IMG/VR virus record: IMGVR_UViG_3300029268_000006
Coordinates: 32,001-96,000 of that record
Reading direction: 5' to 3' (one strand)
Length of the DNA: 64,000 nucleotides
DNA from: a virus
The notes beneath the pieces are model-generated. The model was given only the letters and a program-made list of their open reading frames with translations, had not been told where the DNA came from and did not search any database. The position numbers were made by a program, and so were the translations under genes. This document shows, piece by piece, positions 23,563 to 55,888 of this stretch (positions within the stretch are counted from its first letter, which is position 1; each line of letters opens with the position of its first letter).

Positions 23563-23569
23563 TTTTAAT

Positions 23570-29370: not shown

Positions 29371-29521
29371 TTTCGATAACATTGATGATTCAGTCGATCT
29401 AAAAAGAAGATATACCCAAGAACAATTACTGAAGATATGGGATGATACATATCCTAAATTATCAGAAATTAGTAGTGATAAAATTATTATAACAATTACA
29501 CCACCTGAAAGGTGTTTATAA
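29363..29521 (+). CDS. Small hypothetical protein (52 aa)
   Basis: Not in the track. The ATG overlaps the end of the upstream gene; MINFDNIDDSVDLKRRYTQEQLLKIWDD. Confidence 0.45.
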   Translation: MINFDNIDDSVDLKRRYTQEQLLKIWDDTYPKLSEISSDKIIITITPPERCL

Positions 29522-30610
29522 TTTTCCTGTTCCCTCTAAGTTATCATTTTCAATGGATAAATATCTTGGATGAAAATCGAAACCAATTATTTCACCTTTA
29601 TGATCACCGTCGCGAAGTTTAAGAATTTTTAAACGATATTTGTTATTCTTTCTCATTTCGTTATTTCTGATAATAGCCCATACACAATCCGCTGTTTCAG
29701 CGACAGCTTTACTTTCTGGAATATCCGCCAACTTAATATCATTTGCACCCCAAACAGATTTATCGGTTTGTGTAGCTGTTATCATAGCAACGTTGTATTT
29801 GTCTGCTAAATACCTTAATCCTTCTGCCAGATGTTTTCCTTTTAAGAAAAGGTTGTTACCCATTTCTTTATGTAATTTATCAACAGACATGAGATTAATG
29901 TAGTCAATAATAATCATATCGAATTTAACATTTCTAACTTCAATATATTTATTTATAAGATTATCCAAATCATCGATTGTACATTGACCAGTATTGAATT
30001 TTTTGACCCAAATTTTTCCAATTTTCCCATTATTAAATAAACCTAGATTTGTTGTGTTTTTTAATTGTGATATTTTTGATTTAATAAAATTTGGATCTTT
30101 ACTTAATTCGTCATATTGATCTGCATCAATTTTTAATCTCATTGCACCTAAACGTTTCATAACTTTTCTCTTAGATAATTCGACTGAAACTACTAATACG
30201 TTCGCACCACTATCTGCTGCGTTTTTTGCAGTATTATATAACCACATTGAATTATGACTCAAAATATCATTTGTCCAAAATCTATGATTTTCATCGTTTA
30301 GTTGAAAATCAAACATATTTGATTTTTTATCATGAATATCTTTATAACATTTACAAACAACTTCCACACCATTTTTTGTTTGTATTTTATCACCTGATAC
30401 TAAGTCTTTAACAAAAACTTCGTTCATATTTTCATCAAAAACAATATGGGTATCTGCACATATTAATTCAGATGTTTGTGTTATTAAAACCCATTCATCA
30501 TATTCTATTGTTTTACCTATTGATTTGATATCTGACCAACCATTATCGGTTTCTATTTGCCATTCATCTATTTCTACTGTATCTATAAATTTTCTTTCAA
30601 AATCTAACAT
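29516..30610 (-). CDS. gp41: Replicative helicase (gp41/DnaB-like), long C-intein (120 aa) plus C-terminal fragment
   Basis: ELICADTH; NMFDF..HRFWTNDILSHN|SMWLYN (junction 30251/30250); VSVEL, IIIDY, TATQ, ESKAVAETAD, KLRDG. Confidence 0.92.
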   Translation of the reverse strand: MLDFERKFIDTVEIDEWQIETDNGWSDIKSIGKTIEYDEWVLITQTSELICADTHIVFDENMNEVFVKDLVSGDKIQTKNGVEVVCKCYKDIHDKKSNMFDFQLNDENHRFWTNDILSHNSMWLYNTAKNAADSGANVLVVSVELSKRKVMKRLGAMRLKIDADQYDELSKDPNFIKSKISQLKNTTNLGLFNNGKIGKIWVKKFNTGQCTIDDLDNLINKYIEVRNVKFDMIIIDYINLMSVDKLHKEMGNNLFLKGKHLAEGLRYLADKYNVAMITATQTDKSVWGANDIKLADIPESKAVAETADCVWAIIRNNEMRKNNKYRLKILKLRDGDHKGEIIGFDFHPRYLSIENDNLEGTGKL

Positions 30611-30628
30611 TTTTTATTTTATTCTTTT

Positions 30629-31657
30629 TTAACCATTCAAAAAATCTATACACGTTTGAATAGTTTTTTCTTTATGAAATTTATAATCACATTCCCATAC
30701 AATTAAAATATTATATCCAACATCTTTTATAGAATCAATTTTCAATTTATCTTTTTCCCAAATTTCATATGCAAACATTTGGAGATATTTATGAAAATAA
30801 TTTTTATTATATGTTTTAGGATTACAGTGCCAGTAATCACCGTTGAATTCTATTATTTTTTTATTATATACAAAATCATATGAGAATGTTTTTCCCAATT
30901 CTTTAAAATGTCTAAAAAATTGTTTTTTTCCGTAATGAACATTTTCTAATTTTATTTTTTCCAAAATATTTTCAAATAATTCTAATTCTGGTCCGGAATA
31001 ATTATCATATTTAAATTTTACAAAATCACCATTTTTATATTTGGCTTCTATTTTTTCACTCCATTTATTTTGTCTATTATTCCATATTTCTAGACCTTTA
31101 ATTTCACCATATTTTTCTATACATTTTTCTAATGTGAATGTTTTTTGTCTTTCCGATACTTTATTTTTAGATTCATCTTCCGTGAATCCTTTTTTCATCC
31201 AATATAATTTTTGTGTTGGGTTTACATCAGTATATAAGTGTTTATTATCGTGTCTTTTTTTTATTGCTTTTTTAGATATATCATTTTGTATATTTTTTAT
31301 TATTTTTAATGAATCTTCATTATTAAATCCTCTTTTCAACCAAAATTCGATACTTTGTCTGGATTTTTCCTTAAAAAAATTCTTATTTTTTTCGAATGAT
31401 TTTTGTAATCCAATTGTAATTTTTTCACCTCTGTTTAATGCTCTATCATTCATTAAATCAATAGCATCTTTTTTTGATAAACCATATTTATACATAAGAA
31501 ATTCATACGTTCCTGTGGCTCTAGTTTTTCCCAAACACTCTTTGGAATTACATATCCTATGATACCCCCCACTTATATTAAAAAAAATTGAAGGGTTTCC
31601 ACAGTAATAACAAGTACCTTCATTTTCCTTTTTAAAGTGTTTATCATAGTATTCAAA
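30629..31657 (-). CDS. Putative homing endonuclease nested in the split gp41; open frame begins directly after the IntN stop
   Basis: The tracked ORF starts at TTG 31534, but 41 more open codons (FEYYDKHF..CYYCG..C...C) reach the TAA at 31658-31660; QKTFTLEKCIEKYG; IIEFNGDYWH. Confidence 0.75.
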   Translation of the reverse strand, partial: FEYYDKHFKKENEGTCYYCGNPSIFFNISGGYHRICNSKECLGKTRATGTYEFLMYKYGLSKKDAIDLMNDRALNRGEKITIGLQKSFEKNKNFFKEKSRQSIEFWLKRGFNNEDSLKIIKNIQNDISKKAIKKRHDNKHLYTDVNPTQKLYWMKKGFTEDESKNKVSERQKTFTLEKCIEKYGEIKGLEIWNNRQNKWSEKIEAKYKNGDFVKFKYDNYSGPELELFENILEKIKLENVHYGKKQFFRHFKELGKTFSYDFVYNKKIIEFNGDYWHCNPKTYNKNYFHKYLQMFAYEIWEKDKLKIDSIKDVGYNILIVWECDYKFHKEKTIQTCIDFLNG

Positions 31658-32371
31658 TTACAGTTTTAGATAATTGAAAAATTCACCAATTGTAATTTCC
31701 TTTATTTCTTTGGTTTTTTTATTTTTAATTTTTATGTGAGTATTTGATTTACAGCACTTACCAACTCCAGTTTCACCAAGAAATACATTGAATGTTGATT
31801 TATCCCATCCACCGTGCAAAAGTGTGTCTACACTAGACCAACCGGATGTTATTTTATTTTTGGAAACTTCTTGTTTATGTGATTCTGGATCATCAAAATC
31901 GTCACCCAAATCTTCTTCATCTTCAAGTATTGATATATTACTAAATACTGTTTTTACTTTAGATAAAACATCGACAACATTATCATAATCTATTTCTTTC
32001 AGATTACGAATTAAGTCTATAACAGTATATGTTTTGTTTTTTAAATCATTTGATAATTTCCAAGCTTTGAAATGTCTTTCCAACCATTCTTTATCGTGTA
32101 CGGAATTGTCATTTTTTAGTAATGTTTTTATGACATTATTATTTATCTTTTCTTCCGGATCATTTAATTTGATCATCGCAACAATTTGTTGTGGTGATGC
32201 TACATTTTTTGTTATAATATATTCATCTTTTACTATTTTAAATATAAAACGAATTTCATCGTTTTTAAAGAAATCTGGTTCTACATTTAAGAATTGAGAT
32301 GAATGATCCATTATCCAAGTGAAGAAAAATTTCTCCATTTGAACATTCATCGTTTCTTTATCATTACTCAT
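31658..32371 (-). CDS. gp41: Replicative helicase, N-terminal fragment plus short N-intein (32 aa)
   Basis: GWSSVDTLLHGGW..TFNVFLGETGVGK|CCKSNT (Cys1 at 31756-31754). Confidence 0.92.
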   Translation of the reverse strand: MSNDKETMNVQMEKFFFTWIMDHSSQFLNVEPDFFKNDEIRFIFKIVKDEYIITKNVASPQQIVAMIKLNDPEEKINNNVIKTLLKNDNSVHDKEWLERHFKAWKLSNDLKNKTYTVIDLIRNLKEIDYDNVVDVLSKVKTVFSNISILEDEEDLGDDFDDPESHKQEVSKNKITSGWSSVDTLLHGGWDKSTFNVFLGETGVGKCCKSNTHIKIKNKKTKEIKEITIGEFFNYLKL

Positions 32372-32483
32372 TCATAAGTTATTATTTTTTAAGAATTTTG
32401 TTCATAGTTCGGTTTTATGGTTGAATCTTGTGCATCCGGACTGACTATTACCCAGATTGGATTTTTTATATCTTTAACATTTT

Positions 32484-33509
32484 TCATTTGTTAAATCTAT
32501 TAAAACTGTTTTGTGATATAAATACATATTCGGAATTTCCTATAAAGTTTTTTAAATCATTATCTCCTTGATATGACATACAAGATTTTAAATAATCTTT
32601 AAAATTATCAACCCAACCACCTATTGAATATTCAACTTTATTCATTCTGATAATACCTTCCGATGTTCTTAATTCTTTTTTACCCCATTTTCTTTGAACA
32701 TCTTTTGTACTCATTCCCCTAAATAATTTATAAATATCACCACCATCTTTAAAATAATCGATTGCATCGTTTTTATCAATTTTTATATATGTTTCATCTT
32801 CTTTTATATAATCTTGTCCACAAGATTCAATTGATTTGTTGATTATATTTCCGAGCATTACACCATCTGATCCTAAACCAATAGATTTTATGATGTCATC
32901 GAAATTTTTAAAACCACCATCAGCTATAATTTTTGTTTTATAATCGTTTTTTATTTTTATGTCATAACATTCTTTTATTAATGATGCCATTGGATAATGT
33001 ATAGAACTGTTTGCGGATGTCGTACATGCGTGCCCCGCCCCTATTCCGCATCGGATATAATTAACATTTAATTTTGCATATTGTTCAAAAGTTTTGGGAT
33101 TTGCAATATTTCCTATCATTAATTCAATATCAATATATTTTTCTTTAATAATTTTAGATATCTCATAAATTCTTATTGAATGTGCATTAGCAACATCAAT
33201 TAATATTCTTTTTGGTAAAGTCTTGTTATTTTTTATTTTCTCTTCTATTTCATCCAAACTATAAGATATGAAACAATCATCTTCAAATTTTGTTTTATCA
33301 TTATTTATTCCTCTAGGAATACAAATATAGAAACCCAAATCTCTAAAAATTTTATAATTGTTTTCATCTATTACTGTATCCATTGGTGATACAAATAATG
33401 GTAAATTGTTATTTTTATCAAATATATTTATTTCTTTTCTAGATCTTATATCACTTATAATAGTTGGTATTAATGAAATATCATTGAAATCGAATTTAAT
33501 ATTATTCAT
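32484..33509 (-). CDS. IMP dehydrogenase/GMP reductase family enzyme
   Basis: FNDISLIP, SPMDTV, IDVANAH, GIGAGHACTT, IIADGG, VMLG, FRGMS, LKSCMSY. Confidence 0.85.
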   Translation of the reverse strand: MNNIKFDFNDISLIPTIISDIRSRKEINIFDKNNNLPLFVSPMDTVIDENNYKIFRDLGFYICIPRGINNDKTKFEDDCFISYSLDEIEEKIKNNKTLPKRILIDVANAHSIRIYEISKIIKEKYIDIELMIGNIANPKTFEQYAKLNVNYIRCGIGAGHACTTSANSSIHYPMASLIKECYDIKIKNDYKTKIIADGGFKNFDDIIKSIGLGSDGVMLGNIINKSIESCGQDYIKEDETYIKIDKNDAIDYFKDGGDIYKLFRGMSTKDVQRKWGKKELRTSEGIIRMNKVEYSIGGWVDNFKDYLKSCMSYQGDNDLKNFIGNSEYVFISQNSFNRFNK

Positions 33510-33617
33510 ATGTTTTTTTCTTTATAATATAAAATAAAAAAGTGAAAGTTTAAGCCATTTCCAATATCAATTCAAATAGACTTTAAAAAATTAATATATA
33601 AAAATAAAATTTTATAA

Positions 33618-34598
33618 ATGAAAATATTTTTTCATGATAAAACATATGATGATTTCGAATTAATAAATGGGACATTTTTTATAAAAAATAAAATTGGTGA
33701 TACAATTAAATGTAAAAATGCAATAGAATTTGAAATTGAATGTGTGAAATGTTTATCTAAAATTAAAATAAAAAAAATAAAAAGATATCATCTTGATAAA
33801 GATTATATTTGTATAAGATGTAGAACAAAAGGTGAAAATAATCCCATGTATGGAAAAAGAATGAGTGATGAGAAAAAATTAGAGATAAGTAAAAAAAATA
33901 GTGGGGAAAATAATCCGTTTTTTGGTAAGAAACATACAGATGAAACTAAAAAAAAGATAGGTGAAAAAAATAAAGAACATATGAAGGGTGAAAATAATCC
34001 AATGTATAAAAAATCTGTTTTTGATATTTGGGTTGAAAAATATGGTAAAGAAAAAGCTGATGAATTAATGAAAAATAAATCATTGAAACATTCATTTTCT
34101 GGTGAAAATAATCCATTTTTCGGAAAAAAACATACTGATGAAACAAGAAAAAAATTATCAGAATCTTTAAAAAATTCAGATAAATTAAAAAAACTTGTGA
34201 ATAGTAAAGAATATAGAGAAAAAATGTCAAACAAATTAAAAAACAGAAAATTTTCCGATGAACACAAAAGAAAATTAAGATTGTCTAGGATAAAAAATAT
34301 AAAATATTTAAACAACGGACAAATATTACCAAATTTTAGTTTGATTGGTTGTGAAATATTAAATAAAATTTCAACCGAAAAAAATATTTATATACAACAC
34401 GCGATGAATGATGGTGAATTTTATATAAAAGAATTGGGTTACTGGGTTGATGGTTATGATAAATTAAATAATGTTGTTTATGAAATAGATGAAAGTGGAC
34501 ATTTTGATATGAACGGTGAATTAAAAGAAAAGGATATAAAAAGACAAACCCAAATAGAAAATCATTTGGGTTGTCAATTTATTAGAATAAAAATTTAA
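33618..34598 (+). CDS. Putative homing endonuclease with NUMOD3 repeats
   Basis: GENNPFFGKKHTDET repeats; C-terminal IQHAMN.GE..YWVDGYD...YEIDESGH is shared with the ORF at 1563. Confidence 0.8.
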   Translation: MKIFFHDKTYDDFELINGTFFIKNKIGDTIKCKNAIEFEIECVKCLSKIKIKKIKRYHLDKDYICIRCRTKGENNPMYGKRMSDEKKLEISKKNSGENNPFFGKKHTDETKKKIGEKNKEHMKGENNPMYKKSVFDIWVEKYGKEKADELMKNKSLKHSFSGENNPFFGKKHTDETRKKLSESLKNSDKLKKLVNSKEYREKMSNKLKNRKFSDEHKRKLRLSRIKNIKYLNNGQILPNFSLIGCEILNKISTEKNIYIQHAMNDGEFYIKELGYWVDGYDKLNNVVYEIDESGHFDMNGELKEKDIKRQTQIENHLGCQFIRIKI

Positions 34599-34632
34599 AA
34601 TATTGTTCCTGTTTTCTTCAAAGATTTATTTT

Positions 34633-34887
34633 TTATTCCACTTGTAATGATTCTTTAGCTCTTTGTAGGAATTCTATTAAATCATCGATTGAACTTTTAT
34701 TGTTCAAATAGAAATTATCTAATTCAATTGAGTCGATATGATGACCAACGGTACAGTTTTTAATATCATCGTCCATTTTCATGTTCATTTCCCAATCATA
34801 AGATTTAATTCTGGTGTACCAAGTTGCTTCATCAGATTTAACACTATCATTAATAAAATCTGGATTAATAATTCTAATTGTTATCAT
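34633..34887 (-). CDS. Hypothetical protein
   Basis: 84-aa ORF downstream of uvsX. Confidence 0.6.
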   Translation of the reverse strand: MITIRIINPDFINDSVKSDEATWYTRIKSYDWEMNMKMDDDIKNCTVGHHIDSIELDNFYLNNKSSIDDLIEFLQRAKESLQVE

Positions 34888-34904
34888 TTTTTGTAAATTA
34901 TTTT

Positions 34905-36146
34905 TTATTTTAACAAAATATCATCTGACATTTCACTATCAATTTCAAAATCATTATCTTCTTCAAATTCTTTATATTCTTCGTCAAGTTCTTCATTTGA
35001 TTTTTGAATTTCTTCAAAAGATGAATATTTGAAATAATCGAAAACAATAGGTTCTAATGAATTAATTACATCATCATTAAAAACTTTTCCATTGAATAAA
35101 TTATTTTCATGAATTACTTTATCTAAATGTTTCACGTACCATTTTTTAGGTGGTCCAGATTCATATGTAATTTCTCCTGTTTTTTTATCAACAACTGGTT
35201 TTAACATAGCGATACCAACTTTTTCAAAATTTTCGGGTGTGCAGAAAAATTCTAATCCCTTATATGGATTACAACCTTTGGTGTGATCAATTTCAAATTT
35301 TACTTTTTTTGGTTTTGCTAAACGATTTTTACGAGATTTTGCTGTAATAACAACCCCCTGTGAACCAAGTGAAAAATCATCCTTATCCTTATCTTCCAAT
35401 TTCGCAATAGTTAAATAGATGATTACAGATGCTGAATAATTTATACCTTCACCACCAGATTGTTTTTCGGTGGGGAAAAGATCCATTGTCATGTAGATGT
35501 GATTTGTTGCCACTAAAGGTATGTTTAAGTAACCCAAATCGTTAGTAATAACTCTAAACAATGACTTGATTGCTTTGGCTCTACTCATATCAGATTTTTG
35601 TTTACCTTCAAGTGCATCTTCTACTTCTTTTGTAGATGCTAATTGGCCGATACTATCTAATATAAATAATGTTTTTGATACATCGACACCTTTTTCTTTT
35701 TGTTCTTTCAGAGCATCTAAAATTTGAACAACTGCTATTTTAAGATTTTCGACTTTGTTAGAACGAATCAGTTTAAATTTATCTTCATTTTCAATATTAA
35801 TACCGAACATGTCAAAATCAGTATTTTCAATAGAAAATTCAGTATCAATATAAAAAATATTATATCCTTCTTTTTGGGCGTTTCTTACTATATTTAAAGC
35901 GATGTAGGATTTACCTGTTTGTGGAGGACCTGCTAGTATAGTAATTCTATTTTTCGGAACTCCACCTTTTTTAATGCTTTTTGAAATTAATGCATTAAGA
36001 ATATAAATTCCCGTGCTGATATAAGATTTTTCCCCTTTCAGATTATCAATAGTAATCATAGATTTCTTTGATAATCCATCAATTACATTTGAAATTTTTG
36101 AAAAATCAAAATCGTTTTTTGGATTTGATTTTATTTGTTTCGCCAT
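34905..36146 (-). CDS. uvsX: RecA/UvsX-like recombinase
   Basis: GGVPKNRITILAGPPQTGKS; YIDTE; LDSIG; TNH; GGEGINYSAS; K.RKNR. Confidence 0.92.
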   Translation of the reverse strand: MAKQIKSNPKNDFDFSKISNVIDGLSKKSMITIDNLKGEKSYISTGIYILNALISKSIKKGGVPKNRITILAGPPQTGKSYIALNIVRNAQKEGYNIFYIDTEFSIENTDFDMFGINIENEDKFKLIRSNKVENLKIAVVQILDALKEQKEKGVDVSKTLFILDSIGQLASTKEVEDALEGKQKSDMSRAKAIKSLFRVITNDLGYLNIPLVATNHIYMTMDLFPTEKQSGGEGINYSASVIIYLTIAKLEDKDKDDFSLGSQGVVITAKSRKNRLAKPKKVKFEIDHTKGCNPYKGLEFFCTPENFEKVGIAMLKPVVDKKTGEITYESGPPKKWYVKHLDKVIHENNLFNGKVFNDDVINSLEPIVFDYFKYSSFEEIQKSNEELDEEYKEFEEDNDFEIDSEMSDDILLK

Positions 36147-36199
36147 TCATGTTTGATTATTTTTTAGATAATATTAATATAAATATTTTCAAGAAAAGT

Positions 36200-37822
36200 T
36201 TAATTTTTCCAGATAAATTTCAAACTACCACTATCATAAATTCGATAAATCTTTCTTTCTAACATGATTTCATGTTCTGTTTTGTTCGGATCAAAACCTT
36301 CACTAACTAATTTATCTTTTCTAAAATTAAATCTATGATAACGTTTTTTATCTATAATATAGTAATAATTTGGTTGAGTTTTGTGAATTAATTTAAATCC
36401 AAGTTGTTTATACAATTCCCCTTGACTCCATGATCTATCAGCGTAACTAATCACTTCCTTATGTTTGTAATTTTCGATAAAATATTTGAATACTTTTTCA
36501 GAGCCACCAATTACTGATGTGTTTAATTTACTACAAAATCTCAACATTTCATAAACACCATCAGAATTACTTTGTTTCATAAATTTACGTTTCGATCCAA
36601 AAGTCATCAAGGAAACCAATACATCATTATAAAACAAACCAAGTTTAATCTGTGATCCGACAAATCCTTGTAAATGACTTTTTTCTAAAAAATCACGAAT
36701 TAATTTATTATCTGTAATTTCTTTAATGATACATTTACGGGCGTAAATTTTATTTGGTGTTTTACCTATTAAATTTAGGATTCTGGATTTAATTATTTCT
36801 TGTTTATAAATCCAATCATCTTCATAAATATGTATTAATTTTATATCTTGTTGTTCACATTTTTCTGTTTTATCTAAATGATAATTATTATCGACACCAA
36901 ATTCATTGTGCCAAAATAATCCATTAAATTCAAATGCCAATTTTAAATCTGGTAAATAAATGTCTAGTTCATATGGTGAAATAATATTTCTTTTATTTAA
37001 TTGAATTTCTTTATTGTAATTTTCTTTAATGAAATTTTGAAGTTGTATTTCATAACCACTATTTGAAAAAGAATTTATCGGATTACAAAATGGACATAAA
37101 ATAGTTTTATATGATATTCTATTTTTTATTGAAGAATTCATTTTAAATATATGTCCTTTTTCACACACATATTCATTATTATTGTTTACTAACATAATAC
37201 CATATTTAGATAAAATATTTAATCTTTTTATCATACGAGTATGTGATGATTTTTTACGAAAATCAGAATTTTTATTTAAATTATCAACTCCATATTTTTC
37301 TAAACATGTTTTTTTATATTGTTCTAAATTATTATAGTTTTCATCACCATATTTTTCAAGTTTAGTTTGCTTTGATTTGTTTTTGAATTCATCCAATTGT
37401 AAAGCGTGTTCTATCCCATAATTTTTAAATATTGTTTTTTTATTTTTTTCTATGTTATTATAGTTTTCATCATTATATCTTTCAATTTTAGTTTGTTTGG
37501 ATTTATCTTTAAAAATATTAGTAGTAAAAAAATATTCATTACCATATTTATTTTTATTTGTAAGTTTATTTTTTACTATACTACATTTTTTACAAGTTAT
37601 AAAATTATATTTTGATAACCTCAAAACGTAAGTTTGATATGACATTTTTAATATTTTTTCACACAAATCACATTTAACTTCAATTATTTGATGAGATCCA
37701 TTTGATAAATGTTCAACAGGAATTTTTAAGATATCTTTTAATTTAATATCATATTTAAGATTTTTATAAAAATTAATATTCTTTTTATTTATTTTTATTT
37801 CAACTTCTTTTGTTATTAACAT
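36200..37822 (-). CDS. Hef-like putative homing endonuclease (KYG repeats, Vsr-like domain, YARKC..SYAD domain)
   Basis: ELDIYLPDLKLAFEFNGLFWH; IYARKC; HLQG; LRFCSK; ISYADRSWSQG. Confidence 0.8.
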   Translation of the reverse strand: MLITKEVEIKINKKNINFYKNLKYDIKLKDILKIPVEHLSNGSHQIIEVKCDLCEKILKMSYQTYVLRLSKYNFITCKKCSIVKNKLTNKNKYGNEYFFTTNIFKDKSKQTKIERYNDENYNNIEKNKKTIFKNYGIEHALQLDEFKNKSKQTKLEKYGDENYNNLEQYKKTCLEKYGVDNLNKNSDFRKKSSHTRMIKRLNILSKYGIMLVNNNNEYVCEKGHIFKMNSSIKNRISYKTILCPFCNPINSFSNSGYEIQLQNFIKENYNKEIQLNKRNIISPYELDIYLPDLKLAFEFNGLFWHNEFGVDNNYHLDKTEKCEQQDIKLIHIYEDDWIYKQEIIKSRILNLIGKTPNKIYARKCIIKEITDNKLIRDFLEKSHLQGFVGSQIKLGLFYNDVLVSLMTFGSKRKFMKQSNSDGVYEMLRFCSKLNTSVIGGSEKVFKYFIENYKHKEVISYADRSWSQGELYKQLGFKLIHKTQPNYYYIIDKKRYHRFNFRKDKLVSEGFDPNKTEHEIMLERKIYRIYDSGSLKFIWKN

Positions 37823-37869
37823 ATCATATTTTTATATAAAAATATTAAATTTGTTTTAATTTTTTCAAT

Positions 37870-38322
37870 TTGGAACTAATTAATAATATATATAAATTAT
37901 CTTCAAAAATCAATCACCTTAAAAATATGAATTTCTATTTGGTACTAAGTAAAGATAACAGAAAATGGAAGAAATATATTAAAGTAAACAGAATACGAAA
38001 TAAGGTAATAATCGATATTAAGACAGCACTGGAAGAAAATGATATAACAGATGAAAAATTTTCTGATTATTTCAATTTATTAATTTATACCAGAATCATA
38101 CAGGCACTAAATAAAGAAAAGGATGTGTATTACATCCCTAACTTCTCGAATAAGAAATTCGATATAAAAGAAATATTTAAGATTAAAAAGATATTAACTG
38201 GTGGAACTTATTTTAATATCCTGATGTTTTTTGATGAATTTAAGGATGATGTTAGATTCCAGAATGAAGTTTTAACAAATATTACTTTATTTGATAAATC
38301 TCAAATAATTAAGGATTATTAA
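37870..38322 (+). CDS. Hypothetical protein
   Basis: 150-aa ORF; the start may be ATG about 37928. Confidence 0.55.
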   Translation: MELINNIYKLSSKINHLKNMNFYLVLSKDNRKWKKYIKVNRIRNKVIIDIKTALEENDITDEKFSDYFNLLIYTRIIQALNKEKDVYYIPNFSNKKFDIKEIFKIKKILTGGTYFNILMFFDEFKDDVRFQNEVLTNITLFDKSQIIKDY

Positions 38323-38786
38323 GATAAATATTTAGATAAGTTTGGACAACCCATTTCATTAAGATACATAGATAAAGCTTTATATCTCAATTCTTTGGAT
38401 AATAATGGATTTTTATCTCTTACGGAAAGAAAATCAACTAAATTTTTCCATCTGGCTGCATATTCTCTATCTTCCCAATCACCAGCAATATTCATCATTT
38501 CCTGCCACTCTTTTTCCTTTTGTTCTATTTCTTTACGTAAAGAATTGCAATAATTTAACCATTTTTCACCCCTATTTGGATCAAATTCTGGACCAAAATC
38601 GTCCATATTTGATATTGATATTTTATTAAATCTACTTTGTATTTCATTTTCATAAAAAGTATCAGCATTAAAAAACATATCATCTGCTTTTTTTCTACAA
38701 TATTGATAACTTTCTGTGGTTTCGGCAATTACTTTTACAGTGGAAGTAATATCATTTCCATTTTCATCAATAACAATATATTTCAT
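38319..38786 (-). CDS. Hypothetical protein
   Basis: 155-aa ORF. Confidence 0.65.
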   Translation of the reverse strand: MKYIVIDENGNDITSTVKVIAETTESYQYCRKKADDMFFNADTFYENEIQSRFNKISISNMDDFGPEFDPNRGEKWLNYCNSLRKEIEQKEKEWQEMMNIAGDWEDREYAARWKNLVDFLSVRDKNPLLSKELRYKALSMYLNEMGCPNLSKYLS

Positions 38787-38795
38787 ATTTTTAAT

Positions 38796-39320: not shown

Positions 39321-39473
39321 ATTATTTTACAGTATACCAATCACCATTATAATTTAATTGTGTCTTTTTACAATGAATGCAAGTTCTTGTCACATTAAAA
39401 TCATAAAATGATACTTTTTCTAACCATTCGTGTTTACCAAATAAACATTTTAAATAATTTTTTAGTTTTTCTT

Positions 39474-40388: not shown

Positions 40389-40397
40389 ATTTTTTAT

Positions 40398-40751: not shown

Positions 40752-40902
40752 ATTACAAAATTATGAAAAAATAATTAAATAAAAAAATTTAATTGAAATA
40801 TATTTTATATTCCCCTCAAATATAGGAAAAAAATTCAATAAAAAAAAATTCAATAGGTGTTTCCATTTTTAATATATAAAAACAAAAGTAATATAATTTT
40901 AG

Positions 40903-42741: not shown

Positions 42742-42755
42742 AAAATAAATTAAAA

Positions 42756-44653: not shown

Positions 44654-44654
44654 T

Positions 44655-47600: not shown

Positions 47601-48806
47601 ACAGGAACTGAAAAATTACCAATTAATGATATGGGTGAGGTGTTTATTGGGGTTGAAAAATCGTTGATTGATAATATTGGTGAAATTTATTCTAATTTAC
47701 AAACAAAAAATAAAACAAATATGGATGATATTTTTATTAATAATATTGATAAACAAGATAAATATCTAAAAACAACACAAACTGGTGATGTTTTAGGATA
47801 TTCTTATGATAAATACGGTAATTTGATTCCTATTTTTATACACGATGAAGAAAATGAAACTGTAACAACAAATATATATAAATCTTTAGATACAAATATA
47901 TCAGACACCACAAAAAAAGAAATAATTTTTTCTGATATGGGACAGGTATTTAATGGTATAAACCAACCACCAATAGCCGATATGGGACAAGTTTTCAATG
48001 GTATAAACCAACTACCGATTGAAGATATGGGTCGGGTATTTAATGGCATGAACCAACCACCGATTGAAGATATGGGTCAAGTTTTCAATGGTATAAATCA
48101 ACCACCGATTGAAGATATGGGCCAGGTATTTAATGGTATGAACCAACCACCGATTGAAGATATGGGTCAGGTATTTAATGGTATAAATCAACCACCGATT
48201 GAAGATATGGGTCAAGTTTTCAATGGTATAAACCAACCACCAATAGCCGATATGGGACAAGTTTTCAATGGTATGAACCAACCACCGATTGAAGATATGG
48301 GTCAGGTATTTAATGGTATAAATCAACCACCGATTGAAGATATGGGTCAAGTTTTTAATGGTATAAATCAACCACCGATTGAAGATATGGGTCAGGTATT
48401 TAATGGCATGAACCAACCACCGATTGAAGATATGGGTCAGGTATTTAATGGCATGAACCAACCACCGATTGAAGATATGGGTCAAGTTTTTAATGGTATA
48501 AATCAACCACCGATTGAAGATATGGGTCAGGTATTTAATGGCATGAACCAACCACCGATTGAAGATATGGGTCAAGTTTTTAATGGTATATATGATAATA
48601 ATATAATAAAAGATACCAAATTAGATGACGAAACAGTTTTTATTCAAAAACAAGAACAAAAGAGTGAAATTAATTTGGGTAATGATTTCACAAATAAATC
48701 TGATAATAAAAAAAGATTAAATGATGATAATATTTATGAACAAAATAATGAAAAACAATCAGAAAATTTGGGTAAAACATATGAAAATAATTTAGATGAC
48801 GAATGA
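44655..48806 (+). CDS. Large structural protein: globular N-terminal domain plus long 15-aa (N/D)(L/M)G repeat arrays
   Basis: 1383 aa; degenerate NLG repeats are followed by two homogenised arrays. Confidence 0.75.
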   Translation: MAGGGLISSISSISNSSRGIGSSIYKMKNPNNFATASVELANSAINLAGSIGSLQRGINDLFYNDRDVINQDMNIMTGNNYISGYEKIPFQPLMNMIIPDDAKEIMGMKQDIRTQPMVDYDMENFKYSLDRQTDNTDYYYEDPLFVSFDLMFDDMESPLFTEVDNFFETYYTNNDNIAFFKAWSYYDKFKQLFWKIFNSTSHPDKKSNKVWYINSITGLDKLTSKIPKYTEDKLTITLSEDIAMLVNYLVDSYNNFAYNYRDQRYNLPDNLLRFKMMIQFTDMRTMKLLDHFETPGYMYDKATQIYTLYDCNFDFFNSKNFADEVINGGYGASKNDTPATVKFDIIYKSIQKEFRTPLLKGERDNIVDNKEYDVSSRNILNFRSNLKRTDENELELKDILKNAFGIANSLNNMLQDYIPKIPIPIPSLPPDVLGTTYESVIPVNKALILNQDTDDRKINPLAARKKLIEDFTKSMEPSLIPNLRITGTTINSLGYDFEQIIELPRSESLKNVFENNVSSPLPVYTNLGFIELFLKSPFSGNLGEIELYLKPTFSGNLGEIELYLKPPFSDDLGYNYQNISTPTHDNLGILPFITNPFVVGNLGYDFQNISNQEHENLGILPFIINPVIVGNLGYDYQNLPTILHGDLGIEFENNINIVPQNLGNDYLNIGKRPPIPDIILFGGSIINPSNLGYIYTNIQELTNINLGINFDNTVKRQLTSLNTLYNNFIKKQEIILGNDFTNLTKIKNELNLGNSFDISEKINIELKLLNVYDNVGQKNNIDNVVLFEKSEKQISELNNIFDNVVEKKSIINMGESFIGVEKSLIDDMGEVFTGTEKLPTNDMGEVFTGTEKLPTNDMGEVFTGTEKLLTNDMGEVFTGTEKLQINDMGEVFIGTEKLPTNDMGEVFTGTEKLLTNDMGEVFTGTEKLLTNDMGEVFTGTEKLPINDMGEVFTGTEKLLTNDMGEVFTGGEKSLIDDMGEVFTGTEKLPINDMGEVFIGVEKSLIDNIGEIYSNLQTKNKTNMDDIFINNIDKQDKYLKTTQTGDVLGYSYDKYGNLIPIFIHDEENETVTTNIYKSLDTNISDTTKKEIIFSDMGQVFNGINQPPIADMGQVFNGINQLPIEDMGRVFNGMNQPPIEDMGQVFNGINQPPIEDMGQVFNGMNQPPIEDMGQVFNGINQPPIEDMGQVFNGINQPPIADMGQVFNGMNQPPIEDMGQVFNGINQPPIEDMGQVFNGINQPPIEDMGQVFNGMNQPPIEDMGQVFNGMNQPPIEDMGQVFNGINQPPIEDMGQVFNGMNQPPIEDMGQVFNGIYDNNIIKDTKLDDETVFIQKQEQKSEINLGNDFTNKSDNKKRLNDDNIYEQNNEKQSENLGKTYENNLDDE
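47088..47675 (+). repeat. 13 x 45-bp coding tandem repeat (DMGEVFTGTEKLPTN)
   Basis: Period 45 nt (47133 to 47178, etc.). Confidence 0.95.
47934..48590 (+). repeat. 14.6 x 45-bp coding tandem repeat (DMGQVFNGINQPPIE)
   Basis: Period 45 nt; 47934 + 14 x 45 = 48564 starts the last, partial unit. Confidence 0.95.
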
Positions 48807-49483
48807 AGTTATTAGATGGTAAAATGTTTTTTGGAATCGTTGAGGATAATAAAGATCCGAATAGAAGAGGTCGTGTTAAGGTTAGGGTTCAAAGTGTTTT
48901 TGATGATATACCATTGGAAGATATTCCATATGCTTCCCCAACATTGGCATCTGATGGGAAAAGTTTCAGTATACCGGATGTTGGTAAAGTAGTAACTGTT
49001 GTTTTTGCGTGGGGGGATCAATATCAACCATATTATATATCAAGTGTTTATTTTAACATAAATTTGGAAGAGAAATTAAATGATTTATCTGATGATCAAT
49101 ATACTAGTTTTTCTGCTTTATTTTTTGATAACAATACCCAGATTTATGCAGATGAGGTGGATTTGACTATTGATTATCTTTTCAATAAAATTACAATTTC
49201 AGATAAAAATATAAATTTAGAATTGAAAGATAACGATAGAAAATTAACTTTGGGAACAGTAGAAGCTGATCAACAGGCATTATTATCGAACCATTGGTTT
49301 AAATGGTTTGATAAATTGGTTGATGCTTTGGTAAAACCAAGTTCATTGATCGGAAATAGTGGTGGTCCTATTTTAAAACCAGAAGTTGATCAACTTTTAG
49401 CTGAATATAAATTAATAAAGGATACGTTTTTATCAAAAAATGTTTATATTGTTGATAATGGTGATGTAAAAAAATTAAAATAA
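48803..49483 (+). CDS. gp5-like baseplate spike protein (N-terminal OB-fold)
   Basis: GIVEDNKDPNRRGRVKVRV....IP.EDIPYA....P.VGKVV.V.F motif. Confidence 0.8.
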   Translation: MKLLDGKMFFGIVEDNKDPNRRGRVKVRVQSVFDDIPLEDIPYASPTLASDGKSFSIPDVGKVVTVVFAWGDQYQPYYISSVYFNINLEEKLNDLSDDQYTSFSALFFDNNTQIYADEVDLTIDYLFNKITISDKNINLELKDNDRKLTLGTVEADQQALLSNHWFKWFDKLVDALVKPSSLIGNSGGPILKPEVDQLLAEYKLIKDTFLSKNVYIVDNGDVKKLK

Positions 49484-49484
49484 A

Positions 49485-50609
49485 ATGGCTGGAATAAGAC
49501 CGAGTAAACCAAATTTAGACGATGTTGATACTAAAATAAACAAAGATAATTATAAAGATAGTGATTATATTGCACCAGAAGCAAAGGAATCTATAAAGAA
49601 TACAACCAATAAAGAAACTGATAAAATGTCCACTTCTACTTCTACATCATCAACAATAGAATGTGATACTAGTCCAGTTACTGGTGCTTTATCTGATGTA
49701 ACACCCGATGAAAATGACAAAATAATAGAAAAATCTTTACAAAAATCTGATGTTGAAAAAATGCAATATATTTCCCAAAATAATCCAGAATATTTAGATG
49801 AAATGGGATTATCACCCGATGAAATCTTTGGAATAAATATGTCTGGTGATTCTGGTTATACTTATCAAGATAATGAAATAGTAATGGATGAGAATGGTTT
49901 AGTATATGTTGAACAAACAACACAAACACAAACAGAAAGTCAATTATCTAATATTACTTCCGGGAACGTGGAAACTGGTAATCAAATAATTGGAACAGGA
50001 CAACCAACAATAATTAAAGTTTCCAGTGTGTTTGCACACCCAACAAATAATGTTGGTAAGTTGTCTAGTAGTTTTGGTTTGAGAATTTTACCAGCCGAAC
50101 GATATTGGCAATTACATTCTGGAATTGATATATCTGCACCTAAAAATACACCAATTTATGCAATATCTGATGGAGTTGTGGTTTCTATAAATACAAATAG
50201 AGATGGTGGTGGTTATGGAAATTTTATAAAATTAGCATTTGCATATAGTGGCAAACCATATTTTGTCTTTTATGCACATTTGGAATATGTCGAGGTTATT
50301 AAGAATCAAAAAGTTGTTAAGGGTCAAAAGATGGGTGGTGTCGGTGGAACTGGAAAGAAACCAGAATATGGTCCTCATTTACATTTTGAAGTGAGAGATG
50401 CATCAAATAGAAAAATAACATATATAAGAGGTTCAATCAATGATACATTTGTTGGTGACGAAAAACCGAGAGAAAGAAAATCTAAAAACATTTCAGATAG
50501 AAGTTTAAAATGGATACCAAATTCAAATACTGATTTTGAAATTCAAAATGAATTTAAATCATATATTAATCCAAGTGATTTTCTTTCCAATCCATCAAAA
50601 TATACTTAA
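49485..50609 (+). CDS. M23-family peptidase (cell-wall hydrolase) with a long N-terminal extension
   Basis: HSGIDI.A..NTPIYA, GGYGN, YAHL, GPHLHFEV. Confidence 0.88.
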   Translation: MAGIRPSKPNLDDVDTKINKDNYKDSDYIAPEAKESIKNTTNKETDKMSTSTSTSSTIECDTSPVTGALSDVTPDENDKIIEKSLQKSDVEKMQYISQNNPEYLDEMGLSPDEIFGINMSGDSGYTYQDNEIVMDENGLVYVEQTTQTQTESQLSNITSGNVETGNQIIGTGQPTIIKVSSVFAHPTNNVGKLSSSFGLRILPAERYWQLHSGIDISAPKNTPIYAISDGVVVSINTNRDGGGYGNFIKLAFAYSGKPYFVFYAHLEYVEVIKNQKVVKGQKMGGVGGTGKKPEYGPHLHFEVRDASNRKITYIRGSINDTFVGDEKPRERKSKNISDRSLKWIPNSNTDFEIQNEFKSYINPSDFLSNPSKYT

Positions 50610-50652
50610 ACTATTTTCATATTTTTCCTTATAATAAATAAAAATTTTATTT

Positions 50653-51609
50653 ATGAAAGTTATAAATGATCTGTTCTGGGAGAAATATAGACCAAAATCT
50701 TTAAATCAAATGGTTCTTCTACCTAGAATTAGAGAAGAATTGAATGAAGGTTTTAAAAAGAATTATTTATTTCATGGACATGCTGGAACTGGTAAATCTA
50801 CTATTGTTAGGATATTATTAAAAGATAAAGATTTTATCAGAATAAATGCATCTAAAAATGGTGGAATTGATACACTTAGGGATGAAATGGATGATTTTTG
50901 TACTGCGATGAGATCACCATTTACCAAATCTGATGATAAGATGAAATATATTTATTTAGAAGAATTTGAAGGTTCGACAAAGGATTTTCAATATGCTTTT
51001 AAAGCATTTACCGAAGATTATGATAAACGGGTCAGATTTATTATCACCATGAATGATTTATCTGCTGTTAAAGTACCGGAACTTTTATCAAGATTTAATC
51101 CTTTGATCAAATTTGATCCGATAAATGATTCAGAAAGAGAATATCTTCAACAGGGATATTTCAAATATTTATCAGCAATATCCAAACATACCGAATTAAA
51201 TCTAAAAGATGAAACTATAAAGAATTTGATAAATACTTATTTCCCGGATTTAAGATCAGCGGTCGAGGGTGTTCATCAAATTTTTATAACCGGAAAGGAA
51301 GATGTTGAAATACAAGAATCATATTCTGATATTTATAAATTCATATTAAGTAATAGAACATCATTTGATGACATTTATAATTTTGTTGTTGATAATTATA
51401 CGAATAGACCAAAGGAATTAATGGTTGTTCTGGGTAGACCTTTCTATAAATATTTAACTGATAATCATAAAAATATTATTGAAAAAAGTGGATTCAAATT
51501 AATGGGGATTTCAAAACAATATAATGCTGAATATGAAACAACAATAGATCCAATTATACATTTGATTTCTTACATATCGGATTTGAAAAAAATAATAAAT
51601 GAAGTATGA
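50653..51609 (+). CDS. gp44: Sliding-clamp loader large subunit (gp44/RFC-like)
   Basis: WEKYRPKSL, GHAGTGKST, INAS, RFIITMN, LLSRF, FPDLR. Confidence 0.9.
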   Translation: MKVINDLFWEKYRPKSLNQMVLLPRIREELNEGFKKNYLFHGHAGTGKSTIVRILLKDKDFIRINASKNGGIDTLRDEMDDFCTAMRSPFTKSDDKMKYIYLEEFEGSTKDFQYAFKAFTEDYDKRVRFIITMNDLSAVKVPELLSRFNPLIKFDPINDSEREYLQQGYFKYLSAISKHTELNLKDETIKNLINTYFPDLRSAVEGVHQIFITGKEDVEIQESYSDIYKFILSNRTSFDDIYNFVVDNYTNRPKELMVVLGRPFYKYLTDNHKNIIEKSGFKLMGISKQYNAEYETTIDPIIHLISYISDLKKIINEV

Positions 51610-51872
51610 TAACAAAAATTGAATATAAAAAAGCAATGGAGGTTGTTAAACAATATGAAAAGGAACAATCTGAAAAATGGAGATGTGAGAAATGTGAGAA
51701 GCAGTTTAGTAATCCGTTTGATGAATATTATTGTACAGATGGATTTGATTTAAGAAATGATAAAGATTGTAAAGGTAAAAATTTTATGAATCATAATGAT
51801 TTAATGCAAAACGGTGGACATTTGTATTCAGGTCATTATTCATCACAAGGAGATCAGGGGAAAACGAATTAA
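51606..51872 (+). CDS. Small hypothetical Cys-containing protein
   Basis: 88 aa; CEKC; overlaps both neighbours. Confidence 0.55.
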   Translation: MITKIEYKKAMEVVKQYEKEQSEKWRCEKCEKQFSNPFDEYYCTDGFDLRNDKDCKGKNFMNHNDLMQNGGHLYSGHYSSQGDQGKTN

Positions 51873-52858
51873 TGAAGATCATATATAAATCCCATTGGGA
51901 AAATATGAATGACGATGATTTGATCGTATTTAAAAAATTTATATTTGATTATTATAGAAACAAAGGGTTTCCATATTTTCCGATACCGGACATAGAAAAA
52001 GATATTATCAAAATAAAAAAATATCTTGATAACAACACGATAATATCAGATAAGATAATAAAACAGACCATGCATGGTCTAAATATATGTTGGTATTATT
52101 TTCCCCATTCTTGGGAAGTGAAATGTAACAATATGTTTTCTCCAATGGAAACTTTTTTAGATGATTCGAAATTAAAAAGAGTTATTGATAAACGAATAAA
52201 AAACGATACATACATTAGTGATGGTGGTATGAGAAAACAATTAAGAATATTTACCGGAACACAAAGTGTATCAAATTTCAGACCGACTTCGGCATATGGA
52301 ATTTATGAATATTTTGGTGGTGGGGTAGTGTATGATATGTCATCTGGATACGGTGGAAGATTACTTGGGTCTTTTTTAAGTGATAAAGTGAAAAAATATA
52401 TTGGAGTCGATCCATGTAAAAAGACATATGAAGGGCTGATAAATTTGAAAAATGATTTGAATTATAAAAAATCAGAATTATATAATATTGGAAGTGAAGA
52501 TTTCATACCAGATAAAAATAGTTTAGATTTGTGTTTCACATCACCACCTTATTTCGATACCGAAAAATATTCAGATGAAGATACACAAAGTTGGAAAAAA
52601 TATCAAACAAAAAATTCATGGTTGAATGATTTTTTATTCACAACAGTTAAAAATTGTATTTATGGTCTAAAAACGGGTGGTTATTTGGCAATAAATATTT
52701 CTAATGTTAAATCATATACTGATTTAGAATTTGATTTTATTTATATGATGAATAAATTTGATGAATTAAAATATATTGATAAATTGTTTTACACATTAAG
52801 TGCGATAAATAAAGGTGGTTTCAAATACGAACCAATTTTCATTTTTCAAAAAATATAA
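51872..52858 (+). CDS. Amino-DNA methyltransferase (N4-C/N6-A type)
   Basis: YDMSSGYGGRLLG (SAM-binding); FTSPPYFDTEKY (catalytic). Confidence 0.85.
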   Translation: MKIIYKSHWENMNDDDLIVFKKFIFDYYRNKGFPYFPIPDIEKDIIKIKKYLDNNTIISDKIIKQTMHGLNICWYYFPHSWEVKCNNMFSPMETFLDDSKLKRVIDKRIKNDTYISDGGMRKQLRIFTGTQSVSNFRPTSAYGIYEYFGGGVVYDMSSGYGGRLLGSFLSDKVKKYIGVDPCKKTYEGLINLKNDLNYKKSELYNIGSEDFIPDKNSLDLCFTSPPYFDTEKYSDEDTQSWKKYQTKNSWLNDFLFTTVKNCIYGLKTGGYLAINISNVKSYTDLEFDFIYMMNKFDELKYIDKLFYTLSAINKGGFKYEPIFIFQKI

Positions 52859-52861
52859 AAC

Positions 52862-52885
52862 AAACCCCGGAAAATCCGGGGTTTT
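52862..52885. terminator. Bidirectional terminator
   Basis: AAACCCCGGA-AAA-TCCGGGGTTTT between convergent genes. Confidence 0.85.
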
Positions 52886-52933
52886 ACATTAGGTGTTTAA
52901 TCTCAAAAAAAGGATCTTCTAGTAATTATATAA

Positions 52934-53923
52934 TTATTTCTTTTCGTTATCGATCTTATCTGAGAAATCATCAATATAATTAATATAATCGAGAAATTTT
53001 GGTTCTCTTTTTAACGAATTTTTCCGTTCATTTGGTAAATCGATTTCAATATGACAACGAAGAGTTGCTGGATTTGCATCTAATATAAAAATATCGGTTG
53101 AAAGAAATACAGCTTCTCGAATATCATGTGTGACTAACAAAATAGTTGGGTCTAAACCATTATTATCTTGGAAGATTTTACGAAGAAATAATTGCATTGA
53201 TCGTCTGGTTACGGTGTCTAATGCACCAAACGGTTCATCCATCAATAAAATATTCGGATTAGCCACCAAATTACGAGCTATGGCAACTCTTTGTAACTGA
53301 CCCCCGGATAGTATAGGGTATTTTGCCCACTTCGATTCATGACCACTTAAACCCACAATTTTAATCATCTCCATTGCTTTCTCACGAGCTTCCTTTTTTG
53401 GTGTTCCACTTAGGATTAACGGAAGTGCAACATTATCCAAAACAGATTTCCAAGGGAATGAAGAATATTGTTGGAAAACCATCGGGATGTGATTATCGTC
53501 CTTGAGTTTTGTACCGTGAAGATAAACACTACCGGATGTTGGTTTTTGTAAACCACAAATATAACGTAATATTGTACTATTATGTGATAAAATACCATTA
53601 ACAAAAAATCTTCTTTGAGATATTTCTGTTAATTCTATATCTATCATGTTATCTTCAACTTTTGTTTCAATTATAGATATAACTTTTTCTAAACCATTAT
53701 TTGTTATAATTAAATTATCAATTTTTAAATCTTTAACAAATATTTCATTTATATTTTTATCAAACACTATATGTGTGTCTGCACATTTTAATTCGTGATT
53801 TTCGGTTTTCAATATCCATATTATATATGGAATTGTAATTGATATAGATTTAATATCAACAAAACCATCATCTGTTAATATTTCATATTCATCATTTTCT
53901 AAAATTTTAATATATTTTCTCAT
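52934..53923 (-). CDS. NitT/TauT-type ABC ATPase, long C-intein (about 115 aa) plus C-terminal fragment
   Basis: Likely start is ATG 53923. ELKCADTH; FFVNGILSHN|STILRYICGLQKPTSG (junction 53579/53578); Q-loop MVFQ, signature LSGGQLQRV, Walker B LLMDEPFGALD, H-loop LVTHD. Confidence 0.92.
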   Translation of the reverse strand: MRKYIKILENDEYEILTDDGFVDIKSISITIPYIIWILKTENHELKCADTHIVFDKNINEIFVKDLKIDNLIITNNGLEKVISIIETKVEDNMIDIELTEISQRRFFVNGILSHNSTILRYICGLQKPTSGSVYLHGTKLKDDNHIPMVFQQYSSFPWKSVLDNVALPLILSGTPKKEAREKAMEMIKIVGLSGHESKWAKYPILSGGQLQRVAIARNLVANPNILLMDEPFGALDTVTRRSMQLFLRKIFQDNNGLDPTILLVTHDIREAVFLSTDIFILDANPATLRCHIEIDLPNERKNSLKREPKFLDYINYIDDFSDKIDNEKK

Positions 53924-53925
53924 TT

Positions 53926-54095
53926 TTATGTATTTAAAAATATTAAACAATCATTTATTGTTTTTTCTTTATTTTCTTTATAATCATATTCAAAACAAAA
54001 TAACCATTTTTTTTAATTTCTTCATCTCTTATTAAATCTCTTTTTTTATTTTCAGAATTTTTTCTATGAATTCAATAATTTTATTTTTATTTTTT
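53926..54095 (-). pseudogene. Decayed Vsr/DUF559-like endonuclease remnant inside the split ABC ATPase locus
   Basis: Across two frameshifts it reads KIIEF/HRKNSENKKRDLIRDEEIKKNGYFV/EYDYKENKEKTINDCLIFLNT*, paralleling the C-termini of ORFs 8529 and 30629. Confidence 0.75.
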
Positions 54096-54374
54096 ATAAA
54101 AAAAATCCGGTTTAATTATTTTATTTTCTAATTTTAATCTATATTCATTATTTTTACCACTATCGTCTAATCTTGTGAGATGCGTATTTAAAGCTTCAAA
54201 TCAATTGAAAAAGATGAAAGACCTTGATTTAATTGGTGATAATGGAGAAAATCCTAAATCAAATAATTACAGATATGTATATAATCCTGCTAATTAAACG
54301 CATGGTCAAACACATGGTCAAACTGTCCATGCTCGCATGGTCATTCGCATGGTAGTATTTAAAGTCTTTTTTGG

Positions 54375-54986
54375 TTAATTTGGATGTTGTAAACGTTTTA
54401 TCATTTCTTCTGCTTTTATTTTTTCAATTTTTTGTGTTTTTTTATTTCTAATTGTAATAATAGAATCCATAGTAAAACACTTCCCACATCCAGATTTTCC
54501 TAAAATTGTAACAAATTGACCCCTACCTTTAATATCTTTAACACTTAAATTCAAATTTTCAAATACGACATTTTTCCCCTTAACAAGTTTTGGTGCTGGT
54601 GGTTTTAAAAACATTGAATTTTTCTTATTCGTAACATTTCCGGTACTATCAGTTTTACCCGGAACTGTTGGTAAGATAACATCATATTCTTGTTTTATAT
54701 CAACAAGATCAATGATGTTTACTTTTTCGTAATGTTGATTCGGACTTTTGACTTCAATAATATTTGTATCTTCAAAGTCATTGATAAACATTTCTGGCTT
54801 TGGTTCTGGTTTATCTTCACTTTCAATTGTTTCTGGTTCTTCAACCACTTTAGGTTCTTCAACCTTTAATTCGACCTTTAATTCATCGAATTTATTTTCG
54901 ATTTTTGATTCTTCGACATTTTCCGGTTGAACCTTTGATTCTTCAATAGGTTCGGGTTTTTTTCTATTACTAAAAATATTTCCCAT
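54375..54986 (-). CDS. ABC ATPase N-terminal fragment (acidic extension, Walker A) plus short N-intein (34 aa)
   Basis: VFENLNLSV..GQFVTILGKSGCGK|CFTMDSIITIRNKKT (Cys1 at 54479-54477). Confidence 0.9.
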   Translation of the reverse strand: MGNIFSNRKKPEPIEESKVQPENVEESKIENKFDELKVELKVEEPKVVEEPETIESEDKPEPKPEMFINDFEDTNIIEVKSPNQHYEKVNIIDLVDIKQEYDVILPTVPGKTDSTGNVTNKKNSMFLKPPAPKLVKGKNVVFENLNLSVKDIKGRGQFVTILGKSGCGKCFTMDSIITIRNKKTQKIEKIKAEEMIKRLQHPN

Positions 54987-54988
54987 TG

Positions 54989-55792: not shown

Positions 55793-55888
55793 TCTTTATT
55801 TTTATGTGATTAAAAAATTGAGGAATAAGAAAAATATATATTCCTACCCCAAGATAGGAGTAGGAATATATGAAGTCATATGAAGTTA

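Follow-up and report, generated by a model that had tools for sequence, protein, structure and literature searches.

Among described inteins, those closest in kind to the ones reported here are atypically split, with a short N-terminal intein fragment (IntN) and a long C-terminal one (IntC). AceL-TerL, GOS-TerL and the consensus intein Cat (6dsl) belong to phage TerL hosts, the AceL-TerL/GOS-TerL type having an IntN of 25-37 aa (PMC11766414), and VidaL (6vgv/6vgw) comes from a lake metagenome. Fractured genes were described by Dassa, London, Stoddard, Schueler-Furman and Pietrokovski in 2009 (PMC2677866) together with Vsr-like homing endonucleases of the I-Bth0305I type (3r3p); the hosts listed in its abstract are DNA synthesis and repair enzymes. 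The inteins of DnaB (site b), MCM and RFC show that one insertion point within the P-loop that binds ATP, the point also used by the inteins reported here, can be shared by unrelated ATPases (Novikova et al. 2016, PMC4760082); the inteins surveyed in that work are, as described there, from cellular genomes, and ABC transporters do not appear in its main text. The phage-derived split inteins gp41-1, gp41-8, NrdJ-1 and IMPDH-1 can be used side by side without cross-reaction (PMC11766414), and an engineered assembly of three pieces likewise combines Cat with VidaL (PMC11271493). We analysed 64,000 nucleotides of viral DNA (positions 32,001 to 96,000 of IMG/VR record IMGVR_UViG_3300029268_000006, hereafter the window) that carry split inteins in a helicase, in the ATPase of an ABC importer and in TerL. 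An earlier note on this DNA had proposed that the helicase and ABC inteins could splice with each other's partners, giving chimeric proteins or letting one precursor titrate the other.

The window has a G+C content of 26% and belongs to a 132-kb record of an uncultured giant freshwater phage, about 19% complete, whose nearest GenBank relatives are LR756501 to LR756504, metagenomic phages of 630-735 kb. The helicase, the ABC-importer ATPase and TerL are three fractured genes, each broken at the identical Walker-A position, GK/S or GK/T (the slash marks the junction; Table 1). They add three members to a known type, the P-loop inteins with an atypical split that interrupt fractured genes of phages.

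Table 1. Window coordinates of the three fractured genes and of the elements between their halves
Feature	Position	Strand	Remarks
Helicase N fragment (gp41/DnaB-like)	31658-32371	-	N extein 31757-32371, to ...GVGK; IntN 31661-31756, then stop
Free-standing homing-endonuclease gene between helicase halves	30629-31534	-	phrog_22677; Vsr-like / EDxHD type, tentative
Helicase C fragment	29516-30610	-	IntC 30251-30610 (120 aa), end ILSHN; C extein from SMWLY
ABC ATPase N fragment	54375-54986	-	N extein to ...GCGK; IntN 54378-54479 (34 aa)
Gap between ABC halves	53944..54374	-	3' part (~53944-54167) is a decayed Vsr-like endonuclease remnant
ABC ATPase C fragment	52934-53923 (to 53950 from TTG)	-	IntC 53579-53923, end ILSHN; C extein from STILR
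TerL N fragment	9556-10089	-	N extein to ...QSGK; IntN 9559-9720 (54 aa)
Endonuclease gene 1 between TerL halves	8529-9506	-	Same family as helicase-locus endonuclease
Endonuclease gene 2 between TerL halves	7375-8520	-	phrog_3339 homing endonuclease
TerL C fragment	4956-7382	-	IntC 6942-7382 (147 aa), end ILSLN; C extein from Thr, Pfam Terminase_6N

The helicase IntN (32 aa) begins with a Cys directly after GVGK, the first half of Walker A, and the N fragment as a whole is colinear with the N half of the LR756501 helicase, which is uninterrupted (448 aa) and runs from GK to S without a break across the predicted junction. The helicase C extein matches Pfam DnaB_C from profile position 36, just past the P-loop. 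When the two exteins were joined in silico, they gave 449 aa against 448 aa in the intact homologue, colinear throughout and with the junction inside an ungapped block. The ABC ATPase, whose N fragment lies downstream of genes for a permease and a binding protein, all on one strand, gave a matching picture. Its IntC is 115 aa long from the ATG at 53923, or 124 aa from the upstream TTG, and its C extein matches Pfam ABC_tran from profile position 25, just past the P-loop. Uninterrupted ABC ATPases, both with GCGK-STILRY continuous, are found in LR756501 (385 aa) and in the IMG/VR contig L003, where the extein is 89% identical; the joined exteins (383 aa) are colinear with the intact proteins and the junction again falls within an ungapped block. 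TerL is split at SGK/T.

Searching for the intervening endonuclease of fractured genes, we found one gene between the helicase halves, two between the TerL halves and only a decayed remnant at the ABC locus. The profile of the Vsr-like endonucleases (7 ORFs) gave weak PDB matches to 3r3p, a "mobile intron protein" (E 0.03), and to Vsr. An orthologue of the helicase-locus endonuclease occupies the same place in G001, a 163-kb contig in which the ABC, helicase and Clp genes are all split, with an intact endonuclease gene between the halves of each. The ABC halves of the window are separated by 424 bp, in which the remnant was recognized by tblastn (54% over 67 aa, E 3e-15, in several frames) and by DNA identity (69% over 250 bp); the gene is decayed and frameshifted here and intact at the same place in G001. 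A scan of this gap found promoter-like sites not above chance and no terminator. Compared with the fractured genes of Dassa and colleagues, as listed in their abstract, the helicase, ABC and TerL genes differ in having their split at the atypical N-terminal site and in that one host is a transporter ATPase (PMC2677866).

The three inteins carry the features expected of class 1. The nucleophile is a Cys directly after GK in all three N fragments, and the C-terminal junctions read SHN/S in the helicase and ABC ATPase and SLN/T in TerL. The helicase and ABC inteins have CADTH as block B and the TerL intein has CADVH, with the histidine present and Ala in place of the usual Thr three residues before it; the C, A, D and H are invariant in these three inteins and nearly invariant family-wide. 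The atypical split was confirmed, as the IntN (32, 34 and 54 aa for helicase, ABC and TerL) and the IntC (120, 115 and 147 aa, with blocks B, F and G) are encoded by separate genes. In each of the three pairs the IntN is basic (+4 to +5) and the IntC acidic (-5 to -14). The HINT fold was examined by proxy in a contiguous member from a gp41-like helicase, P0188, whose intein was modelled by AlphaFold2 (AF2) with pLDDT 86-94. In this model the IntN part comprises the first strand with a hairpin and a helix. The linker after it is disordered and falls exactly where the split forms are broken, and the IntC strands come next. Foldseek placed the intein domain of P0188 closest to VidaL 6vgv (E 1.4e-12, TM 0.88) and matched its extein to T4 gp41. 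VidaL has the shorter IntN, about 16 aa against 32-54 aa in the window. The inteins of these three genes are separate members of one large class-1 intein family. Each IntN is a short, basic piece of about 32-54 aa, consisting of the hairpin and helix, and each IntC an acidic piece of about 115-147 aa, naturally split at the atypical site; each pair would most likely reassemble with its own partner, trans-splice and restore an ordinary P-loop.

The earlier note had also mentioned extra helices in the TerL pair; a contiguous TerL relative (P0175) shows them in its AF2 model as a two-helix hairpin (148-162 and 166-180) that comes after the IntN helix and ahead of the first IntC strand. Matched by eye, as MAFFT misplaced the tail of the N fragment, the break in the window's TerL corresponds to the turn of such a hairpin, with the IntN tail on helix 1 and the IntC head on helix 2. 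It is plausible from this model that one hairpin helix per TerL half serves as an extra handle for cognate pairing. The TerL C fragments P0121-P0125 carry the family IntC at their start and a second, contiguous intein downstream that ends SHN/C or similar, and are multi-intein terminases.

To describe the family, a profile was built from the window's three IntC. It matched 1,385 representative clusters at the cut-off of E <= 0.001, 140 of them at E <= 1e-30. The IntC was N-terminal in 248 of 271 sampled matching proteins, which are therefore split forms; it was internal in the other 23, of which most have a contiguous intein whose IntN motif is the same and likewise follows GK. SHN ends were present in 265/271 and S or T at +1 in 268/271. 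The C exteins include TerL, DnaB-like, ClpX-like, ClpB-D2, ABC (11 clusters), gp44 clamp loader, Pif1 and other AAA proteins, as well as an SbcC-like class named by eye only, with no Pfam match. The family has settled in the Walker-A loops of P-loop ATPases of at least nine kinds. The IntN consensus is strongly conserved across hosts in the 49 IntN/IntC pairs that were recovered from 67 IMG/VR loci. Host labels cluster on the IntC tree (109 rows), yet about 34 host changes are needed against a minimum of 10, which indicates that jumps of the intein between unrelated P-loop genes did occur. Two members, P0141 and P0239, have about 300 extra residues between their IntN and IntC parts; either an endonuclease domain may be integrated into the intein at the atypical split site, or the gene calls may be read-through.

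Among inteins of solved structure, NrdJ-1, VidaL, gp41-1 and CatC come nearest in sequence, each with an E of only ~1e-4 to 1e-5. VidaL, the best structural match, is only a weak sequence match to the IntC profile (E 6e-5), and it differs in that the window family sits at the Walker-A GK/S or GK/T of many ATPases. In the relation to CatC, also weak (E 3e-4), CatC 11-111 aligns to profile positions 16-122, nearly from the first residue, and the split site is therefore about the same as in the window family. GOS-TerL has Ser1 and Cys+1, according to a review (PMC11766414), whereas the window inteins have Cys1 with Ser or Thr at +1. Taken by their alignments, the window's inteins are of the same kind as AceL-TerL, GOS-TerL and VidaL but represent a different, much larger family.

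Two contigs, L034 (4987-10191, plus strand) and L036 (4475-10182, plus strand), encode a ClpA/B/C-type ATPase that is divided into three: Clp_N together with the P-loop of D1, the remainder of D1 together with the P-loop of D2, and the remainder of D2. The pieces are joined by two atypical split inteins of the family, one at each Walker A (D1 and D2), which are 63-67% identical to each other in IntC and 38-44% in IntN. This gene organization is a predicted natural design for tandem trans-splicing of three fragments.

How alike are the helicase and ABC inteins? The earlier note had counted, by eye, about 45 identities over 78 IntC positions and 11 over 32 in IntN. Our alignments agree well with this, as 46 of the first 86 aligned IntC codons and 11/31 IntN positions are identical, and the shared GK/S site and the ILSHN end of both IntC are present in the sequence. 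Over its full length the IntC pair has 58/113 identities (z 37 against shuffles) and the IntN pair reaches z 5.5, with 1/500 shuffles as good, so that the homology of the two inteins stands. The TerL IntC has 42-43 identities with the other two over 113-116 positions, and the similarity of the TerL IntN to the helicase and ABC IntN was not significant. When 553 pairs of members from different host classes were compared, mean identity was 43.7% in IntC and 35.6% in IntN; against these, the helicase/ABC pair lies at the 85th percentile in IntC (50.9%) and the 42nd in IntN (34.4%). The two inteins are alike because all family members resemble each other, and not from recent copying.

If the helicase and ABC halves did pair with the wrong partner, the peptides ETGVGK-STILR and KSGCGK-SMWLY named in the earlier note are indeed those expected from non-cognate joining. 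We infer that the inteins do splice and probably prefer their own partners, because the two IntN are only 34% identical, below the tested cross-reactive cases, because the inteins belong to different deep sub-types, because the two genes of each pair lie side by side, which should favour cognate assembly, because relatives without the inteins exist, and because members more alike than these coexist in the three-piece Clp genes. A cross-reaction in the latter would delete the middle piece, yet the arrangement is kept in at least two diverged contigs (L034 and L036). By analogy with gp41-1, gp41-8, NrdJ-1 and IMPDH-1, we predict orthogonality for the window's inteins, although the former are conventionally split, with a long IntN and a short IntC, and are not one close family at one shared site. 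Cross-splicing, if any, would then be a minor side reaction giving non-functional chimeras, and neither a shuffling nor a regulatory device.

The sub-types differ in charges that are correlated between IntN and IntC, which is a hint only and is confounded by phylogeny. The charge at IntN position 9 is related to that at IntC position 15 with r -0.57, with only 1-4 independent contrasts on supported branches. Mutual information with average product correction (APC) gave no clear signal of IntN-IntC covariation in 57 natural pairs (top MIp 0.35), lineage effects being dominant. In the ABC lineage three charges are reversed in the second IntN strand. Compensation by two ABC-specific acidic IntC residues was considered and rejected, as no family-wide correlation was seen (|r| <=0.17; <=0.22 over fifteen pairs).

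Several observations would be compatible with a less strict preference for the cognate partner. Seven of the 11 residues shared by the helicase and ABC IntN are in the 12 most conserved columns of the family, and, compared by eye, the two IntN have residues of the same kind at the alternating, inward-facing hydrophobic positions of their hairpin and helix. With all IntN basic and all IntC acidic, the electrostatic attraction between halves would be generic. Co-resident pairs have no extra IntN divergence relative to IntC (n=8, p 0.28). Engineered atypical split inteins splice with a foreign IntN only 40-50% identical (PMC3443213), and the IntN of GOS-TerL and AceL-TerL are interchangeable, as reported in a review (PMC11766414). 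If these points prevailed, helicase/ABC cross-splicing or cleavage would occur at a low but measurable level and without adaptive value, wasting precursor and producing junk chimeras with a formally intact Walker A. The common IntN core, the charge complementarity, the GOS/AceL exchange and the lack of a signature of selected orthogonality in co-resident pairs would all fit such leakiness. We nevertheless regard it as rather unlikely, as the low IntN identity, the separate sub-types, the side-by-side encoding and the three-piece Clp genes tell against it, and as co-residence of the two inteins is stable in related phages.

That a cross-reaction matters in the infected cell, with one precursor sequestering or cleaving the other and so coupling replication and nutrient import, or with chimeric P-loop proteins made on purpose, is very improbable. 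An intact P-loop alone would not make a chimera a working enzyme. A swap would combine halves of two different ATPase folds, one from a RecA-like helicase core and one from an ABC nucleotide-binding domain, and such chimeras should not fold; on this ground functional domain shuffling between the helicase and the ABC ATPase is unlikely. We therefore give hardly any credence to an adaptive use of non-cognate pairing, whether for functional chimeras or for a titration that couples replication to transport. The homology, the identical GK/S junction and the common ILSHN end are all that speak for it, whereas the likeness of the two inteins is at the family average and they are not sisters. Furthermore, close relatives have neither intein, and therefore no function can depend on the pair.

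It is just as improbable that the fragments are pieces of dead genes that do not splice. The decay of the ABC-locus endonuclease could be read in this way, but neither a catalytic intein residue nor an extein motif has been lost, the split forms are conserved in diverged phages, and the 132-kb record, only about 19% of the genome, carries no second helicase or ABC ATPase.

The cognate preference that we favour goes together with a long separate history of the two inteins. In the IntC tree the ABC IntC falls in a six-member clade of ABC inteins only (support 98), and the TerL IntC in a clade of four TerL members (99); the helicase IntC lies among DnaB inteins, the nearest of which is 76% identical. 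The phylogeny proposed in the earlier note as a check thus groups the helicase and ABC IntC by their own hosts; forcing the two to be sisters cost 116.6 in log-likelihood and was rejected (p 3e-5) in an approximately unbiased (AU) test on 38 rows chosen beforehand. The ABC IntC of G001 and of the window are about 75% identical, and as G001 shares the split ABC and helicase genes, the two inteins were already together in one genome before these phages parted. They are probably old paralogues, each inherited with its own host gene or homing within it. A recent copy or gene conversion, by which one intein was taken from the other gene in the same genome, is barely conceivable, as the IntC identity in the upper part of the between-host range is set against the AU result, the closer relation of the ABC intein to ABC inteins of other phages (99-63% IntC identity), the DnaB inteins as closest relatives of the helicase intein, and a nucleotide identity of 65% with no gene-conversion tract and no identical run longer than 11 nt between the two intein DNAs.

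Of the spread suggested by the earlier note, the movement between unrelated P-loop NTPases is thus borne out by the host changes on the tree, and the word "recent", as applied to the helicase and ABC genes, is not. The cross-splicing idea finds no support in the sequence data, and recent spread between these two genes is rejected. Single phages hold two or three members of the family, and some hold two in one protein. Should these co-resident sets be orthogonal, as predicted, they would supply orthogonal atypical pairs ready for assembling proteins from several fragments; otherwise this would be the first natural case of cross-talk between split inteins. For phage biology the finding is an ordinary one, and would illustrate a P-loop-seeking intein and a Vsr-like endonuclease spreading between unrelated genes, a transporter gene included.

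The ABC importer operon of the window is complete (52934-57475, minus strand). Besides the permease and the ATPase, it encodes a binding protein of NMT1/phosphonate type that is fused to an OmpA-like domain. The operon is unusual phage cargo, and it is kept in several giant-phage contigs (L001, L003-L008), LR756501 included. In L004 (6696-8687, plus strand) the orthologous phage ABC ATPase has a different, contiguous intein of about 440 aa at the identical GK/S site, with an inserted domain that is presumably an endonuclease. Two unrelated inteins therefore target the GK/S site of the ABC ATPase. Just past the stop of the ABC N fragment, the repeat TGACCATG[CT]G occurs in three copies within 45 nt (54299-54343, minus strand); it is G+C-rich in a 26% G+C genome, and no copy is present elsewhere in the window (0.22 expected).

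The region is dense in selfish nucleases. Three more free-standing homing-endonuclease-like genes, recognized by PHROG matches, lie outside the inteins at 20457-21530 (plus strand), 33618-34598 (plus strand) and 36200-37822 (minus strand). A fourth fractured gene is found at 21565-25333 (plus strand), which is like ribonucleotide reductase (RNR) and of NrdJ type by eye only. Its intein is conventionally split, with a short IntC ending VHN/C, and a PD-(D/E)XK-like endonuclease ORF (22798-23562) lies between the halves; it is a conventional example of the fractured genes of PMC2677866. With 41 copies against 24 expected, TATAAATA, a late-promoter motif of T4 type, is enriched in the window. Neither the helicase N fragment nor the ABC operon has a copy immediately upstream. 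The TerL N fragment has one about 80 nt upstream (10168-10175, minus strand), and another (31485-31492, minus strand) coincides with the start of the helicase-locus endonuclease ORF.

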